The position numbers and the translations under genes are program-made. This document shows positions 3,746 to 27,904 of a stretch of 64,000 bases of DNA, piece by piece; the stretch's first letter is position 1; the number at the start of each line of letters is the position of its first letter. The stretch comes from Candidatus Beckwithbacteria bacterium (GTDB taxonomy: Bacteria; Patescibacteriota; Microgenomatia; UBA1400; CG1-02-47-37), in assembly GCA_026397255.1 (NCBI GenBank), contig JAPLVF010000013.1, positions 150,062-214,061 of the forward strand. Reading direction: 5' to 3'. Below the pieces are notes generated by a model, which saw only the letters and a list, made by a program, of their open reading frames with translations, was not told the DNA's origin and searched no databases.

Positions 3746-5258
3746 AAAAATGACTTTGGCTTAGCCAATTTTTATAACCGGCATCGAGATCTCTCTGGAT
3801 CTTATTGTCCATATACCCTCTCGCCTCAAGTTCTATGGTTGATAAATAAGTTTCCACCCCCCAAGGTAATCCTGATTTAATTATTGCAAGCATAAGGTTG
3901 GTCGCTGCCATTTTTGAGTCGAAATTGTTTCTGAATGTATTTGTAATTTCTTTTGGTGTATATAATGTTCTCATTAACCAATAATACCCCTGTTGGAGCT
4001 GGTCAGATGTCATATTTTTTGGTTCAAAAACGGAAATTCGATGGTTGTAATGCAATGTATCTCTATCTTTAATCCTTCCTTGTCTTTCCATCTGAATTCC
4101 CCATGGAGTAGATGGATATGGCGTGGCCAGATGCAAAAATGTGTAAGGAACTTTGAGCGATTTTAATATGTAAGCATGCCTGTAAAATGTATCGGGAAAG
4201 CTATGATTATCCAAACCAACAACTACAGATAGATTTAATGGTATACCCATCTCCTTAAAAACAACTTCTGCTTTTGCGAGTAATGTGACTTCTTTATCCT
4301 TTGAACCCGCAACGCGTGGGGTGACTATGTCGTCCGCTCCATAAAGAAAGGAAAAACATCCTCCCCCACCATATTTTGCTGACATAAGACGCAAAAGACT
4401 TTTATCAGGGCCAAAATTTTCTAAATCTTCAAGAAGAGGAGCAACCGTCCCTTCTGTGTACCAATGAATTCCTGTTTTATTCAAATAAGTAAATAGCTCA
4501 TATAAAACTTCTCTTGGGATGGCTGAAGTATTTAAGTCTGTAGAAAATAAATGGTCGCCTTTTCCTAAGCCCATCTGCTTAATTTCCTTAATAATATCCT
4601 CGGCGCTTCTATACCTTACCTCATCGTCCCCACCTCTTTGCATTCTAGTCGGACTGCAAAATGAGCAATAATTAGTACAGCCTCTTTGCCATTCTTGCGG
4701 ATGTCTACGCAGTTTTTCCAGAACTCCCGGTAATTTTGAAAAAATGGACCTATCCGGATAAACATAATCCTTCATATCAAAAGGTTCCATTTTTCTTGAA
4801 TCATATTCATCTTTAAGCCTTCCTGATAAAAGATCGGTCATAAATTCTTCCGCAACAGGTTCAAATTCGCCCTTTACCCGGACATCAGCTTCAGCAAACG
4901 ATTCAGGGCTAAAAGTAGGACTATAGCCACCAACGATAACCCTTTTACCTTTTAGCTTGGCAATTCTTGTCGCTTCCTTCGCCATTGATGTATCAAAGTG
5001 TCTGGCTGAGATAAAAACGTTTCCAACATTTTCAATTAATCCCTCAAGAGCGGAAGATCCTTTCGGAGACATCTGCGCATAGGTAGTCTTAAAGCCGGCA
5101 GCTTTCAGATAGGAACTGACTATGGCGATTCCAAGAGGATCAAGGTGTTCCAAATATTTCCGTATTTTCCCAACCGCCGGCCTTTTTTCATCATAATGTT
5201 GAGGGCCGGCTAAGAGTAAAGCTCGTCTTTCTACTGACATGCGGTCATTATAGGACAT
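3744..5258 (-). CDS. B12-binding-domain radical SAM protein
   Basis: 504 aa. Contains the CTNYCSFC radical-SAM CxxxCxxC cluster, preceded by a Rossmann-like N-terminal domain (VIVGGYSP...). The gene is bounded exactly by the 53-bp direct repeats. Confidence 0.6.
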   Translation of the reverse strand: MSYNDRMSVERRALLLAGPQHYDEKRPAVGKIRKYLEHLDPLGIAIVSSYLKAAGFKTTYAQMSPKGSSALEGLIENVGNVFISARHFDTSMAKEATRIAKLKGKRVIVGGYSPTFSPESFAEADVRVKGEFEPVAEEFMTDLLSGRLKDEYDSRKMEPFDMKDYVYPDRSIFSKLPGVLEKLRRHPQEWQRGCTNYCSFCSPTRMQRGGDDEVRYRSAEDIIKEIKQMGLGKGDHLFSTDLNTSAIPREVLYELFTYLNKTGIHWYTEGTVAPLLEDLENFGPDKSLLRLMSAKYGGGGCFSFLYGADDIVTPRVAGSKDKEVTLLAKAEVVFKEMGIPLNLSVVVGLDNHSFPDTFYRHAYILKSLKVPYTFLHLATPYPSTPWGIQMERQGRIKDRDTLHYNHRISVFEPKNMTSDQLQQGYYWLMRTLYTPKEITNTFRNNFDSKMAATNLMLAIIKSGLPWGVETYLSTIELEARGYMDNKIQRDLDAGYKNWLSQSHF

Positions 5259-17732: not shown

Positions 17733-19100
17733 ATGAAGATTAAGCTGCCTGAATTGGTGGTTAAAGTTTTGGAAACTTTGGAAAAGGCCGGATTTGAAGC
17801 TTATGTGGTGGGTGGAGCAGTCAGGGATATCTTAACAGAAACGCCGGTTAAAGATTGGGATTTCACTAGCGATGCTAACCCAGAAGAAATTGTGAAACTA
17901 TTTAAAGAGGCTTTCTATGATAATCGATTTGGAACCGTGGGTGTGGCGGCTAAACATCTGGAAGAACAATTCGGATTAAAAAGTAAGACTGACAGAGTCT
18001 ATGAAATAACCACTTTCAGAAGCGAATCGGGATATTCAGACAGACGGCGGCCGGATAAGGTGGCGTGGGGAAAAAGCTTAAAAGAAGATTTAAAAAGAAG
18101 GGATTTTACTATTAATGCCATGAGTTTTAATAAAAATCTAAAATTGATCGATCCGTTTGAGGGAGAAAAAGATTTAACCAATAAACTAATTAGAGCGGTT
18201 GGCGACCCGAATAAAAGATTTCAAGAAGACGCTTTAAGAATGATGCGGGCAATCAGAATTGCCAGCCAATTAGGTTTTAGCATAGAAATAAAAACCCTGG
18301 CAGCGATTAGTAAAAACAGCACTTTAATTAAACAAATCAGCGCCGAAAGAGTAAGGGATGAATTATTAAAAATTCTGGGCTCGAAATATCCAAAAGACGG
18401 AATTTTATTATTATTCAGCACGGGAATTTTAAAATATATTTTGCCGGAATTAATCGAGACGCGGGAAATCGAACAGGCGGGACACCACACTAAAGATGTT
18501 TGGAATCACAGTTTGGATAGTTTAGCCGCCTCTCCCTCCCCCAACCCGATTATCCGCTTAGCCACTTTACTTCATGATATCGGCAAACCGATGGTTAAGG
18601 CAAGCCGGGAAGGTAAAGAAATTACTTTTTACAACCACGAGGTCGCCGGGGCCAGAATGACGAAACTTATCAGCCGCCGTTTGCGCTTATCAAAAAAAGA
18701 CAGCGACTTGCTATGGTTATTGGTCCGCTGGCATATGTTCGCTTATGAACCGAAAATGACTGATAAAGCTATCAGAAGATTTATCCGCCGGATCGGCAAA
18801 GAAAATATTAATAATATGATAATGCTCCGGGTTGGCGACCGCATTGGCGGCGGAAGCAAGGCGACTTCGTGGCGGCTACGCGAATTACAGGAAAGGATTG
18901 AGCAGGTATTGTATACGCCGATGCAAATTACTGACTTAAAAGTTAACGGTAAAGATGTAATGGACACTTTAAATATTCCAAGCGGACCGAAAGTCGGCCA
19001 AATTTTGAAAAAAATATTTGATGAAGTAATGGAAGACGCCACCAAAAACGACCGGGAGTATTTGTTAAAGAGAATTAAAGAAATACAAACTCATACTTGA
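17733..19100 (+). CDS. cca: CCA-adding tRNA nucleotidyltransferase with HD domain
   Basis: GGAVRDIL...DWDF polymerase-beta head and the HD motif LLHDIGKP. 455 aa. Confidence 0.85.
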   Translation: MKIKLPELVVKVLETLEKAGFEAYVVGGAVRDILTETPVKDWDFTSDANPEEIVKLFKEAFYDNRFGTVGVAAKHLEEQFGLKSKTDRVYEITTFRSESGYSDRRRPDKVAWGKSLKEDLKRRDFTINAMSFNKNLKLIDPFEGEKDLTNKLIRAVGDPNKRFQEDALRMMRAIRIASQLGFSIEIKTLAAISKNSTLIKQISAERVRDELLKILGSKYPKDGILLLFSTGILKYILPELIETREIEQAGHHTKDVWNHSLDSLAASPSPNPIIRLATLLHDIGKPMVKASREGKEITFYNHEVAGARMTKLISRRLRLSKKDSDLLWLLVRWHMFAYEPKMTDKAIRRFIRRIGKENINNMIMLRVGDRIGGGSKATSWRLRELQERIEQVLYTPMQITDLKVNGKDVMDTLNIPSGPKVGQILKKIFDEVMEDATKNDREYLLKRIKEIQTHT

Positions 19101-19139
19101 CATAATGTAACTTTTAAGTTACTATCAATCTAAATTGGC

Positions 19140-19448
19140 ATGAAAAAGATTTATTATGACAAAAATGCTGATAAAGAACTGGCTGAATTTTCCATTTCAG
19201 TTCAAAAAGTTTTCTTATCTTTAATCAATATTTTGAAAACAACCGGAAAACTGGAGTTTCCGGTAACTAAAAAACTTGAGAAAAATCTTTATGAAATCAG
19301 AGTTAAGTTACAAGGAGAATTCCGAGGTTTTTATGCATATATGGGAAAAGAATTTATTGTCATTCTTCACTTTTTCCATAAAAAGACCCAGAAAACACCG
19401 TTAAAAAACCTAAAAACCGCTAAAAGGAGGTTAAAACAATATGAATGA
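19140..19448 (+). CDS. higB: Type II toxin, HigB / Gp49-like (RelE/ParE superfamily)
   Basis: 102 aa. Contains LYEIRV...GFYAY...FIVILHFFHKKTQKTP, characteristic of the Gp49/HigB family. Overlaps the downstream HTH gene by 8 bp. Confidence 0.6.
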   Translation: MKKIYYDKNADKELAEFSISVQKVFLSLINILKTTGKLEFPVTKKLEKNLYEIRVKLQGEFRGFYAYMGKEFIVILHFFHKKTQKTPLKNLKTAKRRLKQYE

Positions 19449-19746
19449 TAAAATTAAAACCGCAATTAAAAGAGGAGATTTAATTTCTTATGATGAAGTT
19501 TTTTCGCGGTATTCTAAAAAACACCAAAGAGAAATTTTAAAACAAGCCCGCTATTTAAAAGCGGCCATGGCCTTAAGAAAATTAAGAAAACAACTGAAAT
19601 TAACCCAAGAAAAATTGGCCAGTAAAATGAAAGTAAAACGGGAATTTATCAGCCGGGCAGAAAGCGGAGAGCAAAACTTAACCCTGGAAACTCTCTATCA
19701 AATCGCCGAAGCGACGGGTAAAAGTTTTCGGTTTCAGTTTAAATAA
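19441..19746 (+). CDS. higA: Type II antitoxin, HigA-like XRE-family HTH protein
   Basis: LTQEKLASKMKVKREFISRAESGEQNLTLETLYQIAEATGK is a canonical HTH_XRE. The toxin-first gene order is that of HigBA. Confidence 0.65.
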   Translation: MNDKIKTAIKRGDLISYDEVFSRYSKKHQREILKQARYLKAAMALRKLRKQLKLTQEKLASKMKVKREFISRAESGEQNLTLETLYQIAEATGKSFRFQFK

Positions 19747-19800
19747 ATCTACGACGCTTCCAAAAACGAGAGGGAATATTTGTTGAAGAAAATTAAAGAT

Positions 19801-19826
19801 TCTCACATACCGGGTGTGTGATAGAG
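19801..19826. repeat. REP-like palindrome (subtype II variant) 5 bp downstream of the RAYT gene stop
   Basis: tctcacataccgggtgtgtgatagag. The arms tcacatacc and ggtgtgtga pair with one G-T wobble. Confidence 0.75.
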
Positions 19827-19830
19827 AAAA

Positions 19831-20517
19831 TTAGTCAGTTTCAGGATTTTCAAGCAAGATGTGTTTAATTATTGATAGTTCTCTTTGATAATCAGCCTGG
19901 CCAAAAATAAAATCTTCATAACCATTAAGTTTTTTAAAATAGTTAACAATAATGTCTTTCTGACAAATTTCATTTTTTAATCTTAAGTATTCCGGAAGTG
20001 AAGAATATTGATAGTCTTTTAAGCTGGAGATTGTCTTGATGATTCCGGAACTATAAGGATTAAGATGGATATAGCGGGTAACGTGTAAAAGTTGTTGTTC
20101 CGTTTCGACTCTTATAGATTTAAATCTTCCTTGGAAAATTGGCCCTATTCTTTTATTCTTAACATTAAAATAATGAGTATAGCTTTCAGATAGTTTGCGC
20201 ATAAATTCAGAAATTCCTTTATCGTTAACTTGTTTTAAGAGAAAATGAAAATGATTAGGCATTAAACAATAACAGATGATCTCTACGAAATATTTTTTTG
20301 ATTCATTTAGTTTTAATAAATACTCTGCTCTTACTGATTGCGGTAATCGGGAAAAGTATGAATACCGCATTGATTGTTGGTAATGCTGATAGTAAAGAGC
20401 AGTTTCTAAGAATCGACGATAATAGCGATTATCATTGAAAATTGGCATTGAAGCTACGCCGCGATTAATAACGTGATAAATTTCCCCTGTAACTAAAGGA
20501 TCTTCTCTACTGGGCAT
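19831..20517 (-). CDS. Y1 HuH tyrosine transposase, REP-associated (RAYT / IS200-like TnpA)
   Basis: HuH motif CLMPNHFHFLL and the catalytic-Tyr motif VTRYIHLNP. The gene is bracketed by inverted REP palindromes (19801-19826 and 20538-20561). Confidence 0.7.
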   Translation of the reverse strand: MPSREDPLVTGEIYHVINRGVASMPIFNDNRYYRRFLETALYYQHYQQSMRYSYFSRLPQSVRAEYLLKLNESKKYFVEIICYCLMPNHFHFLLKQVNDKGISEFMRKLSESYTHYFNVKNKRIGPIFQGRFKSIRVETEQQLLHVTRYIHLNPYSSGIIKTISSLKDYQYSSLPEYLRLKNEICQKDIIVNYFKKLNGYEDFIFGQADYQRELSIIKHILLENPETD

Positions 20518-20537: not shown

Positions 20538-20575
20538 CTATCACACACCGGGTGTGTGATGTCGAGAATGTGATG
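20538..20575. repeat. REP-like palindrome subtype II (copy 3) plus an adjacent half-site
   Basis: ctatcacacaccgggtgtgtgatg has perfect 10-bp arms and is followed by gagaatgtgatg, a subtype-I half-site. The palindrome supplies the last codons (HHTPGV) and stop of secF. Confidence 0.8.
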
Positions 20576-21437
20576 TTTTAATTTCTTCCCAGAGAACTAA
20601 TAAAGGCGCGGCGGTAAAGGTGGAAGAATAGGTGCCGGAGACGGTGCCGATTAATAAGGCAAAAACAAACCATTTAGTGGTGGAACCGCCGAATAAATAC
20701 AAGGCTAAAAGCATAAAAATAATCGTTAAGGAATTATTAAGCGAGCGGCCGAGGGTTTCGGTAACGGCTTTGTTGACTAACTGGGTAAAAGATAATTTAG
20801 GAAAGAGTTTTTGCGATTCACGGATACGGTCATAAACAACAATGGTGTCATGAACAGAAAAAGACAAAATCGTCAACAAGGCGGTGACAAACAAAGAATC
20901 GATTTCCACCCCAAAATAAACTCCTAAGAAAGCAAAGACACCGATCATAATAAAAGTGTCATGCAGCATAGCTAAGATGGCACAAACACCGAATTTGGCA
21001 TTGCGAAAACGATAAGCGACATAGCCAAGAATAAAGCCGGCAGAAAGCAGAATGCCAACAATGGTCTTCAGGATTAATTCTTTTCCCAGCGTCGGTCCAA
21101 TTGTTTCAAAGCGTTTTTCACTGACGGGTCCGAATTTTTGAGAAATGGCTGTCTGCAATTTTTGACTGGCTGATTGGTCGATGACTTGAGAACGGATAAT
21201 AAAGGTGTTAACCCCGGCAGTCTGCAGATTGCTTAAAGCAATTTCTGACTCCACCACCGGACGCAGTTCATTTAAAGCAATATTTTTATCAGATTGAAGG
21301 CTAATTTCCAATAAGCTGCCGCCGGTAAAATCGACGCTGGGCTTTAAACCGTGGCGAATAAGAAAATACAAACCAGGCAGAATAAACAATAAAGAAAAAG
21401 CAAAGTATAAATATTTGTATTTCATGAAGTTGATCAT
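20541..21437 (-). CDS. secF: Protein translocase subunit SecF
   Basis: SecF N-terminus ...SVDFTGGSLLEI and 6 TM segments. The C-terminal SHSRHHTPGV plus stop is encoded by REP copy 3. Confidence 0.9.
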   Translation of the reverse strand: MINFMKYKYLYFAFSLLFILPGLYFLIRHGLKPSVDFTGGSLLEISLQSDKNIALNELRPVVESEIALSNLQTAGVNTFIIRSQVIDQSASQKLQTAISQKFGPVSEKRFETIGPTLGKELILKTIVGILLSAGFILGYVAYRFRNAKFGVCAILAMLHDTFIMIGVFAFLGVYFGVEIDSLFVTALLTILSFSVHDTIVVYDRIRESQKLFPKLSFTQLVNKAVTETLGRSLNNSLTIIFMLLALYLFGGSTTKWFVFALLIGTVSGTYSSTFTAAPLLVLWEEIKTSHSRHHTPGV

Positions 21438-22696: not shown

Positions 22697-22885
22697 CTAT
22701 GGCGCCGGCGGCAAAGAATTTAAAGATAGCTGTTTGGCGCCTTGAAAAGAATAAATTACCTGGCCGGTTTCCAGAACGGTTTTTACCTTAACCTTGTCTT
22801 TGGCCTTGATACCGACGGCCTTAACAAAAGAAGAAGGCACGGTGACACCAAGGCTGTTACCGACGGTCATAACTTTTTGTTCCAT
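22697..22885 (-). CDS. AbrB/MazE/SpoVT-family swapped-hairpin DNA-binding protein
   Basis: 62 aa. MTVGNSLGVTVPSSFVKAVGIKAKDKVKV matches the MazE/AbrB ..GNS.gV.iP... pattern. No cognate toxin is adjacent. Confidence 0.5.
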   Translation of the reverse strand: MEQKVMTVGNSLGVTVPSSFVKAVGIKAKDKVKVKTVLETGQVIYSFQGAKQLSLNSLPPAP

Positions 22886-27325: not shown

Positions 27326-27350
27326 CTATCACACACCGGGTGTGTGATTA
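27326..27350. repeat. REP-like palindrome subtype II (copy 4)
   Basis: ctatcacacaccgggtgtgtgatta, identical in its core to copy 3. It provides the terminal NHTPGV plus stop of ORF 27329..27904. Confidence 0.8.
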
Positions 27351-27904
27351 CTCAATAGCTGATGGGGAAAACACTCTTTTATTACCGCTTCTACGATTGC
27401 TTTTCGAACTGATCCATCAGGGATATTAAACCACCTAATGTTAAGACTTCTATTACGTTCCCATAGTATTTCCGATGCTCTGGCTATGGCAAATAATTCC
27501 GGACTAACATCTGTATATAATGAACGGCACTCAGATTTCGCTGCCAACTCATCAAGTTCAAAGGCTATCTCAAGCCTATGGCAAATTTGTTCAATTTCTT
27601 CATTTTTTAAATGATTAAATAATTTATTTCTAGAGGGGTTGTTGATAATAGCTTCGGAAATCTTACCAGGAGCGTCTCCTTCAATATCAGCATTTGCTTG
27701 TTGAGCCGCACTAAATCCTAATAAGCCTATTAAATGGGGATCATCAGTCACAATTCCAGGCAAACTTGGTTTAAAAGTTTCATCGTGGATCGCCTGCCGG
27801 TTAAATTTTCCCCAAAAGAAGGCTGTAGCTAATAGTATTACTTCTTTGTCATGAGGAGAGATATTTTTGAGGAACTCAGAAGGCCGAATCAATTCTTTTC
27901 CCAT
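27329..27904 (-). CDS. Hypothetical protein
   Basis: 191 aa with no recognisable domain and AT-rich codon usage. The C-terminal HTPGV and stop are read from the REP palindrome. Confidence 0.4.
   Translation of the reverse strand: MGKELIRPSEFLKNISPHDKEVILLATAFFWGKFNRQAIHDETFKPSLPGIVTDDPHLIGLLGFSAAQQANADIEGDAPGKISEAIINNPSRNKLFNHLKNEEIEQICHRLEIAFELDELAAKSECRSLYTDVSPELFAIARASEILWERNRSLNIRWFNIPDGSVRKAIVEAVIKECFPHQLLSNHTPGV

Follow-up and report, generated by a model that had tools for sequence, protein, structure and literature searches.

How does a toxin-antitoxin operon that encodes no recombinase come to lie exactly at the 3' end of an essential housekeeping gene, with a second copy of that gene end on its far side? 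The question is raised by a locus in a 64-kb stretch of DNA (the window, meaning throughout the whole stretch analysed) from a member of Candidatus Beckwithbacteria (Microgenomates, Patescibacteria), in which cca, the gene for the CCA-adding tRNA nucleotidyltransferase, is followed by a higBA toxin-antitoxin (TA) cassette, by a displaced cca end, here called the relic, and by a repetitive extragenic palindrome (REP). The genomes of Patescibacteria, the candidate phyla radiation, are tiny and are regarded as poor in mobile elements and TA systems, and how these bacteria gain genes is an open question. In distant hosts the cassette lies at exactly the same site of cca; attached to it, with constant borders, is a fragment of the cca end, the insert contains no recombinase, and the host REP follows directly after the relic. 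The cassette and this fragment of about 50 nt form a unit that has been exchanged between lineages, and as the best explanation of these observations we infer, with confidence a little short of even, that the unit homes to the cca end by integrase-free recombination via the fragment.

Two cca ends around one cassette

The direct repeat that frames the cassette had been put, by eye and in a sequence-only reading of this DNA, at about 40 matches in some 47 bp; pairwise alignment gives exactly 40/47, free of gaps, between 19035-19081 and 19753-19799, and the pair can be stretched to 54 nt (19028-19081 and 19746-19799) at 81% identity, with 10 nt as the longest identical run. Such a match stands above the chance level of AT-rich sequence: the runner-up 47-mer against copy 1 in the whole window, on both strands, reaches 28/47, 200 random 64-kb sequences drawn from a first-order Markov model with the same dinucleotide make-up reach 30/47 at best, and a degenerate 38-nt pattern finds two sites in the window, both of them the repeat copies, where none is expected. 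A chance repeat is thus ruled out, and so is an assembly artefact, since independent assemblies from the sequencing runs SRR20698647 and SRR20698646 agree base for base over the cca-higBA region. The same reading had placed between the repeats a two-gene unit of 102 and 101 amino acids with an 8-bp overlap, and directly after the second copy a REP and the gene of a REP-associated Y1 tyrosine transposase (RAYT); this arrangement is upheld (Table 1).

The product of the complete cca gene scores over the NCBIfam PRK13299 cut-off. Homology of the gene to that of relatives such as the lineage L126 ends at 19084, in AAAGAAAT, the point at which cca gives way to the REP in L126; the final codons (QTHT) and the stop at 19098-19100 are DNA of the cassette promoter region, so that the last five codons and the stop of the working gene, whose protein ends ...KRIKEIQTHT, are cassette-derived. 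Copy 2 keeps the other kind of end. Its stop TGA (19819-19821) sits inside the REP hairpin, as does the REP-encoded stop of the functional cca in the cassette-free relatives L002 (...KQIKTYHTPGV), L004 (...KRIKQLYHTPGV), L126 (...KRIKEIYHTPGV) and L142 (...KQIKENHTPGV), each followed by its stop. For this reason copy 2 is evidently a displaced end: 22 terminal codons of a cca gene, with the REP still attached, from an allele other than that of the working end. Eight base differences separate the copies across 16 aligned codons, namely four synonymous and four conservative changes (T/S, D/E, R/K, E/D), a pattern with P of about 0.0002-0.004 under eight random substitutions; moreover, functional orthologues show all residues and codons of the relic (for a randomly mutated copy P is 0.0002-0.007). 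Copy 1 is nearer to the L126 cca end (43/48) than to copy 2 (40/48), and the two copies look like two functional cca alleles brought together. The gene itself (17733-19084) also looks mosaic, its 5' part being most like that of L001 and its 3' part most like that of L126, with a maximum chi-square break near 18430-18520 (permutation p<0.002); the recombinant lineage is not assignable, and the relatives are too distant for mapping the breakpoint.

Alignment with cassettes at unrelated loci places the cassette homology from about 19085, on the promoter side, to 19752, just past the higA stop, with borders good to a few nucleotides. This segment is a self-contained type II TA cassette made up of promoter and operator, higB and higA. 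The proposal that its genes encode a Gp49/HigB-type toxin and an XRE-type helix-turn-helix antitoxin is borne out for both proteins by Pfam, HigB matching PF05973 over the full profile at 78 bits (cut-off 23.9), and for HigB by structure as well: its AlphaFold (AF2) model (pLDDT 85.3) has as top Foldseek matches Streptococcus pneumoniae HigB (6af4, E 2e-5) and Mycobacterium tuberculosis HigB1 (7awk, TM 0.80, and 7nbu), the latter a toxin whose structure on the ribosome, together with the mRNA target, has been solved, with RelE, YoeB, YafQ and ParE lower in the ranking, and phmmer relates it to 6af3 (E 1.5e-5). HigB is accordingly modelled as a Gp49-family toxin with a RelE-type microbial RNase fold. 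Matches of HigA to NCBIfam antitoxin families fall under their cut-offs. The toxin-first order, the overlap of the two genes (19441-19448) and the palindromic operator fit HigBA, with activity predicted, and GTAACTTTTAAGTTAC at the operator may be the sequence bound by HigA. The stretch between cca and higB yielded no terminator-like site, and read-through from cca into higBA, hence co-transcription, is therefore possible. Analysis of open reading frames (ORFs) and Pfam found no integrase, transposase or recombinase within 19085-19752, and terminal inverted repeats or hairpins at both cassette ends were likewise not found. A phage origin was also considered and dropped, as viral contigs yielded no relative. 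The G+C content is 0.28-0.32 over the cassette and the RAYT gene (19000-20500) against 0.40-0.48 in the flanking housekeeping genes.

Table 1. Features of the cca-higBA locus and its surroundings, in window coordinates
Feature	Position	Strand	Basis
cca, CCA-adding tRNA nucleotidyltransferase, 455 aa, functional gene	17733-19100	+	Pfam PolyA_pol, PolyA_pol_RNAbd, HD, tRNA_NucTran2_2
Repeat copy 1, working cca end (DATKNDREYLLKRIKEI)	19035-19084	+	alignment with relatives' cca
Cassette left end: last cca codons, cca stop, promoter, operator	19085-19139	+	alignment with cassettes at other loci
-35 box TTGACA	19097-19102	+	promoter scan, 10/12 matches; cca stop TGA 19098-19100 inside
Putative operator, 7-bp inverted repeat GTAACTT-TT-AAGTTAC	19107-19122	+	invariant in every homologue aligned
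-10 box TACTAT	19120-19125	+	promoter scan
higB toxin, 102 aa	19140-19448	+	Pfam Gp49 PF05973, E 5.8e-22
higA antitoxin, 101 aa, XRE helix-turn-helix	19441-19746	+	Pfam HTH_3, E 3.9e-15
Cassette right end ATCTAC	19747-19752	+	alignment; common to L192 and L194
Repeat copy 2, displaced cca end (relic), DASKNEREYLLKKIKDSHIPGV and stop	19753-19821	+	cca-frame translation, in frame with higA
REP palindrome left, hairpin TCACATACC-GGG-TGTGTGA	19800-19824 (palindrome 19803-19821)		repeat scan, folding
RAYT, 228 aa	19831-20517	-	Pfam Y1_Tnp, NCBIfam REP_Tyr_transpos
REP palindrome right, encodes secF last codons HTPGV and stop	20538-20562 (palindrome 20541-20559)		repeat scan, folding
secF, convergent neighbour, marks ancestral cca partner	20541-21437	-	Pfam SecD_SecF_C, synteny

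The cca site with and without the cassette

Whether the TA pair is an arrival or an old part of a cca operon is answered by the cca loci of relatives, of which a cca-protein search gave 80 from genomes and 80 from metagenomes, with CCA identity up to 78%. Throughout these 160 loci the order of recJ, cca, secF and secD is conserved, cca alone pointing rightward and the other three leftward, and none (0/160) carries higB or higA. On this ground the pair is evidently an insertion, as had been proposed, placed where cca meets the REP in cassette-free relatives. In many lineages the ends of cca and secF touch or overlap, and in the closest clade a RAYT gene and two REPs lie between them; the ancestral state is a converging and often overlapping cca and secF. 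Genome and metagenome contigs yielded no closer empty-site relative, that is, none above 78% CCA identity.

Two further searches extend the locus to three other lineages of Candidatus Beckwithbacteria, L192, L193 and L194: one with the C-terminal half of CCA, which led to a protein (P0088) ending ...KKIKEIQIHT, and one with HigA, which led to relatives at 92-93% identity. L192 has the left junction of the window and higA, after which come TAATTCTAC, an unrelated gene, a REP and secF, with no cca-end relic after higA; at L192 445-520 a deletion of about 300 nt has removed higB, so that promoter and operator now run directly into the ribosome-binding site of higA, leaving an orphan antitoxin, which fits the usual decay of TA modules. 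Minus its insert L192 would read ...AAAGAAAT joined to CTTTCACACCCCGAGGGTGTGA, an L126-like junction of cca and REP. L193 has a homologous left junction, a higA of 92%, an 18-nt junction deletion, a relic (NDREYLLKRIKEFIITP and stop) joined to a different REP type, and a very different allele of higB, 65% identical in amino acids to that of the window and saturated at synonymous sites. L194 shares this higB allele and carries a higA of 93%, followed by AAATAAATTTAC, positioned as it is in the window, a relic (AAKNEREYLLKRIKEIYHTNHL and stop), other palindromes, a paaX-like gene, secF and secD. The right junction thus has the same position in the window and in L194, and the relics keep N[DE]REYLLK[KR]IK[DE], with differences that are mostly synonymous. 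Besides the window, then, the cassette evidently lies at the exact cca site in L192 and L193, and L194 fits by its right junction.

Two side observations concern these cassettes. Two higB alleles (window 19140-19448; L193 382-693 and L194 1-258) sit on near-identical blocks of higA and relic, and the switch at the higB/higA overlap indicates that the cassette is itself a recombinant mosaic. In all three relic-bearing lineages the relic is in the frame of higA with a TAA stop between them (window 19744-19821, L193 986-1045, L194 548-630), a frame that the junction deletion of L193 preserves and that could be shared by chance (about 1 in 9).

How far apart the hosts stand is apparent from synonymous divergence (dS): 2.3 and 1.6 for cca of the window against L192 and L193, respectively, and 1.64 for secF and 1.67 for secD against L194, so that it is saturated in every flanking gene compared and the hosts are distant. 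Among all four lineages dS of higA is 0.29-0.37. Against cassettes at other loci the dS of the window higA is 1.4-4.2 or too high to estimate; its synonymous sites are therefore free to change, and the low values among the four lineages point to recent common ancestry. Along the locus the block of similarity is sharply bounded: the identity of the window to L192 is 78% over 18990-19072 and 96% over 19073-19122; that to L193 is 57-78% in higB, 88-98% in higA, 89% in the bin of the relic and 48% in the REP. The cca end beside the cassette has 9 mismatches in 38 nt between the window and L192, as many as the remaining cca would suggest, and this functional end thus diverges as native cca does. 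Because the block of higA and relic is far more similar than the flanking genes, the cassette, right junction and relic were exchanged between lineages as one unit, moving horizontally, long after these lineages had split. An earlier model of ours, a private insertion in which copy 2 was native and copy 1 imported with the cassette, was dropped because cassette and relic recur among L192-L194 and copy 1 diverges like native cca.

The same figures bear on the simplest origin of a flanking repeat, an insertion in situ in an ancestor with a staggered target duplication of about 50 nt, neutral drift of copy 2 and vertical descent. Copy 1 does stop where the cassette begins and copy 2 does begin where it stops, and a cassette dS of about 0.3 would allow a neutral copy to diverge by about 17%. 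However, with the flanks synonymously saturated and the cassette and relic not, vertical inheritance of one ancient event is excluded; the differences between the copies are non-random by both tests given above, the cassette has neither a transposase nor terminal inverted repeats, and a duplication of 50 nt far exceeds the known sizes of transposase target duplications. We give this origin very little credence. The sequence-only reading had seen cargo insertion with duplication of the target gene end, and of this the insertion and the two cca 3' ends stand, while copy 2 is a displaced end and not a fresh duplicate; what had been called a duplication fits recombination through a target copy carried by the insert better than it fits a target-site duplication of the transposase kind.

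The convergent junction of cca and secF is a hot spot for cargo across Microgenomates (L006, L012, L014, L017, L021, L028, L037, L039, L142 and L194), where RAYT, histidine phosphatase, nuclease, methyltransferase, ABC transporter and MBL (metallo-beta-lactamase) hydrolase genes are found together with a Phd/YefM-RelE pair (L014 7472-7974), an EamA gene between two REPs (L142 1083-2013) and the paaX-like gene of L194 between two other palindromes. That a duplicated cca end is a general trait of such cargo was considered and rejected, as none lies beside the histidine phosphatase, Phd/RelE, nuclease, methyltransferase, ABC transporter or EamA genes; among 194 loci a second cca end occurs only in those that bear higBA. 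Nor are flanking repeats general to the TA family, there being none at its tRNA-Trp/tRNA-Met or def/ftsK homologues or at L181. Members of the family lie between tRNA-Trp and tRNA-Met genes in other Patescibacteria (L084 4670-5995, and also L091, L094, L100, L182, L183 and L186), several of these loci also with a small RNHCP-domain gene, and L084 has about 250 conserved nucleotides upstream of the promoter (4750-4960).

Routes to the cca end

By the preferred reading, the cassette with its cca-end fragment, whether as a circle or as linear DNA from natural transformation, would meet a resident cca end and cross over via the carried fragment, in a single-crossover (Campbell) or 'ends-in' event carried out by host recombination with no integrase. 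The product would be a complete cca with its tail and stop from the cassette promoter region, then the cassette, the second cca end as relic and the host's own REP. A circular or tandem intermediate would read ...AAATAAATCTAC-GACGC...AAAGAAAT-ACAAACTCATACTTGACA, passing from the end of higA to the promoter via a single cca fragment. The process could repeat in each new host; were crossover points to vary, the fragment would be re-templated from functional cca ends, and such re-templating would explain why the relics still encode a canonical cca end with mostly synonymous differences. Once in place, HigB and HigA would serve as an addiction or stress module, with HigA repressing at the palindromic operator, and transcription of cca may in addition extend into higBA. 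For Patescibacteria, retention of homologous-recombination genes and of natural competence has been reported (PMC12455944), and host functions could serve for the recombination, the cassette encoding no recombinase.

Several points weigh against this account. A repeat of about 50 nt, about 83% identical and with no identical run above 10 nt, is a very poor substrate of the RecA type, and neither a circular nor an empty-site form was observed. As L192 has no relic, an additional event has to be assumed in one lineage or more. The lineages L192-L194 are short single contigs, that of L194 lacking the left side (its cca end is off the contig), and the dS values for cca and higA come from 101-152 codons. 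Finally, relic-to-relic similarity does not measurably exceed that of relics to functional cca ends, over 36-48 nt with little phylogenetic signal, and the claim that the fragment travels with the cassette is thus founded on the shared junction position and one 40-nt identity bin.

The missing relic of L192, with its plain junction of cca and cassette, speaks for a rival account, a single homology-facilitated illegitimate recombination. In this event a donor's cca 3' part with higBA was anchored on the left in cca, while its right end was joined by an illegitimate event 69 nt upstream of the resident cca stop and so displaced the resident end; the finished structure would have spread later to other lineages by double crossover in the flanks. 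A relic downstream of a new end and its cargo is the footprint proposed for effector-immunity modules of type VI secretion systems (T6SS) and for rhs loci (PMC5361080), and the resemblance of the copies to two functional alleles and the mosaic signal in cca would suit such an origin. Against it, the cca end beside the cassette, as diverged between the window and L192 as the rest, indicates that no donor cca came along, and the right junction is constant in the window and L194 where varying joints would be looked for. Spread by double crossover needs the flanks, yet these are only 70-80% identical, and the mosaic test leaves the recombinant lineage unassigned. A single event of this kind is, in our view, unlikely.

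A different set of possibilities follows from what surrounds the cassette on its right. The RAYT protein matches Pfam Y1_Tnp at 36.3 bits (cut-off 23) and NCBIfam REP_Tyr_transpos with E 2.9e-15 and 56.4 bits, under the curated equivalog cut-off of 80, and is thus a distant member of the latter family. The REP arms that flank its gene (19803-19824 and 20538-20559) are inverted, 91% complementary and hairpin-folding. A RAYT gene lies between cca and secF in L001-L004, L006, L038, L126 and others; it is a resident of the locus in the closest relatives and no part of the cassette. The REP palindrome TCACACACCGGGTGTGTGA occurs in the window at 19803-19821, 20541-20559 and 27329-27347, in each case overlapping the 3' ends of convergent genes and supplying last codons and stop, so that secF and the ORF at 27329-27904 (minus strand) end in HTPGV and the relic cca in HIPGV; the cca genes of L002, L004, L126, L116 and L142 likewise end in REP-encoded codons. 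Farther out, directly downstream of secD, a 62-aa MazE/AbrB-like ORF (22697-22885, minus strand) with a weak 'doc_partner' match keeps its place in most relatives, and no toxin partner was seen beside it.

In this setting a recombinase acting in trans, either a host tyrosine recombinase of the Xer type or RAYT, an HUH enzyme, at the REP border, could have used the cca end as an attachment site, with the cassette as a non-autonomous element like a CIME (cis-mobilizable element) or a dif module. The junctions are constant in distant hosts, the insertion point is the border of cca and REP, and REPs in L142, or type C palindromes in L194, enclose other cargo there. Xer-dependent dif modules of Acinetobacter plasmids are integrase-free as well, and TA systems are prominent in papers on them (PMC6449649, PMC13141974). 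The repeat, however, has by inverted-repeat scan and inspection neither dyad symmetry nor dif-like inverted arms, no identical core is common to all copies, no RAYT lies beside the cassette in L192, L193 or L194, and no hairpin was seen at the right end of the cassette. Y1 enzymes of the IS200/IS605 type insert without flanking duplication and need subterminal hairpins at both ends. A recombinase in trans seems to us an improbable agent, a shade less credible than the illegitimate join.

Homing through the carried fragment therefore remains the reading that we prefer, and it can be taken one step further. The cassette may be a minimal recombinase-free element in which the captured 3' end of an essential gene, about 50 nt, is the sole mobility module, a portable homology arm to cca in any related genome that always restores the gene and is re-templated from the cca of each host; this stronger form is possible, if rather doubtful. 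In a variant of it, REP and RAYT at the cca border may catalyse the event.

The locus among known systems

The locus offers a concrete example of a selfish two-gene module that occupies one exact site in distant lineages and apparently carries a piece of its target gene. If the homing reading is true, streamlined bacteria with natural competence can gain cargo at an attachment site that is no more than a very short captured homology, the ends of essential genes would be safe harbours for such modules, and relic gene ends would be footprints by which similar events could be spotted elsewhere.

As a TA system the cassette resembles the HigBA systems of S. pneumoniae (6af3/6af4) and M. tuberculosis (HigB1, 7awk/7nbu) in its toxin-first order, RelE fold, XRE antitoxin, gene overlap and palindromic operator at the promoter; it differs in that its HigB is 18-28% identical to the solved HigB toxins and that its family is confined to Patescibacteria-like metagenome contigs. 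The REP/RAYT part likewise has the familiar form of a single RAYT gene with inverted REP hairpins on either side at one conserved locus in related genomes. Here, however, it is the context of the cassette, its REPs overlap the last codons and stops of convergent genes, and there are three copies in 64 kb.

Closer parallels to the insertion itself are the integrative elements of gene 3' ends, that is, islands in tRNA and protein genes, integrative and conjugative elements (ICEs) and CIMEs, the integrase-less derivatives. Those with an integrase bring a replacement end for the conserved gene that they enter, and the locus shares with them an insert between direct repeats of the gene end, an undamaged gene, a displaced native-type end beyond the insert and a common site across hosts. 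In contrast to these, the insert at cca is of about 0.67 kb, consists of the TA operon alone with no integrase and no leftover element DNA, and is framed by repeats that have no long identical core (longest run 10 nt). C-terminal displacement, known from rhs, contact-dependent inhibition (CDI) and T6SS effector-immunity loci (PMC5361080), also adds a new 3' end with cargo and orphans the old 3' end downstream with no recombinase; at cca the gene is a housekeeping enzyme and not a polymorphic toxin, the displaced piece has 22 codons and the junctions are constant between hosts. Of the donor anchor stretch and varying joints that mark that process neither is seen, the cca end being as diverged as the rest and the junction constant. 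Modules bounded by dif sites and other Xer-dependent elements are comparable as small integrase-free modules with short bounding sites, TA systems being prominent in papers on dif modules. They differ from the cassette, whose bounding repeat is a piece of coding sequence with no recognisable dif-like site: within 19028-19084 and 19746-19800 there are no inverted repeats such as the XerC/XerD arms of a 28-bp site, patescibacterial dif sites being undefined, and with that same proviso ATTTGTTAAAG bears, by inspection, a weak resemblance to a XerD arm. From transposons and insertion sequences the unit is set apart by an insert with no transposase, ends without a joining inverted repeat and a repeat of 47-54 nt at 81-85% identity.

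The TA family, REP and RAYT, and elements that target gene ends are thus all known, and the TA pair itself is ordinary. What is unusual is their combination, in which a recombinase-free TA operon of 0.67 kb is joined to a piece of the end of an essential housekeeping gene and is found at the same site in distant hosts.

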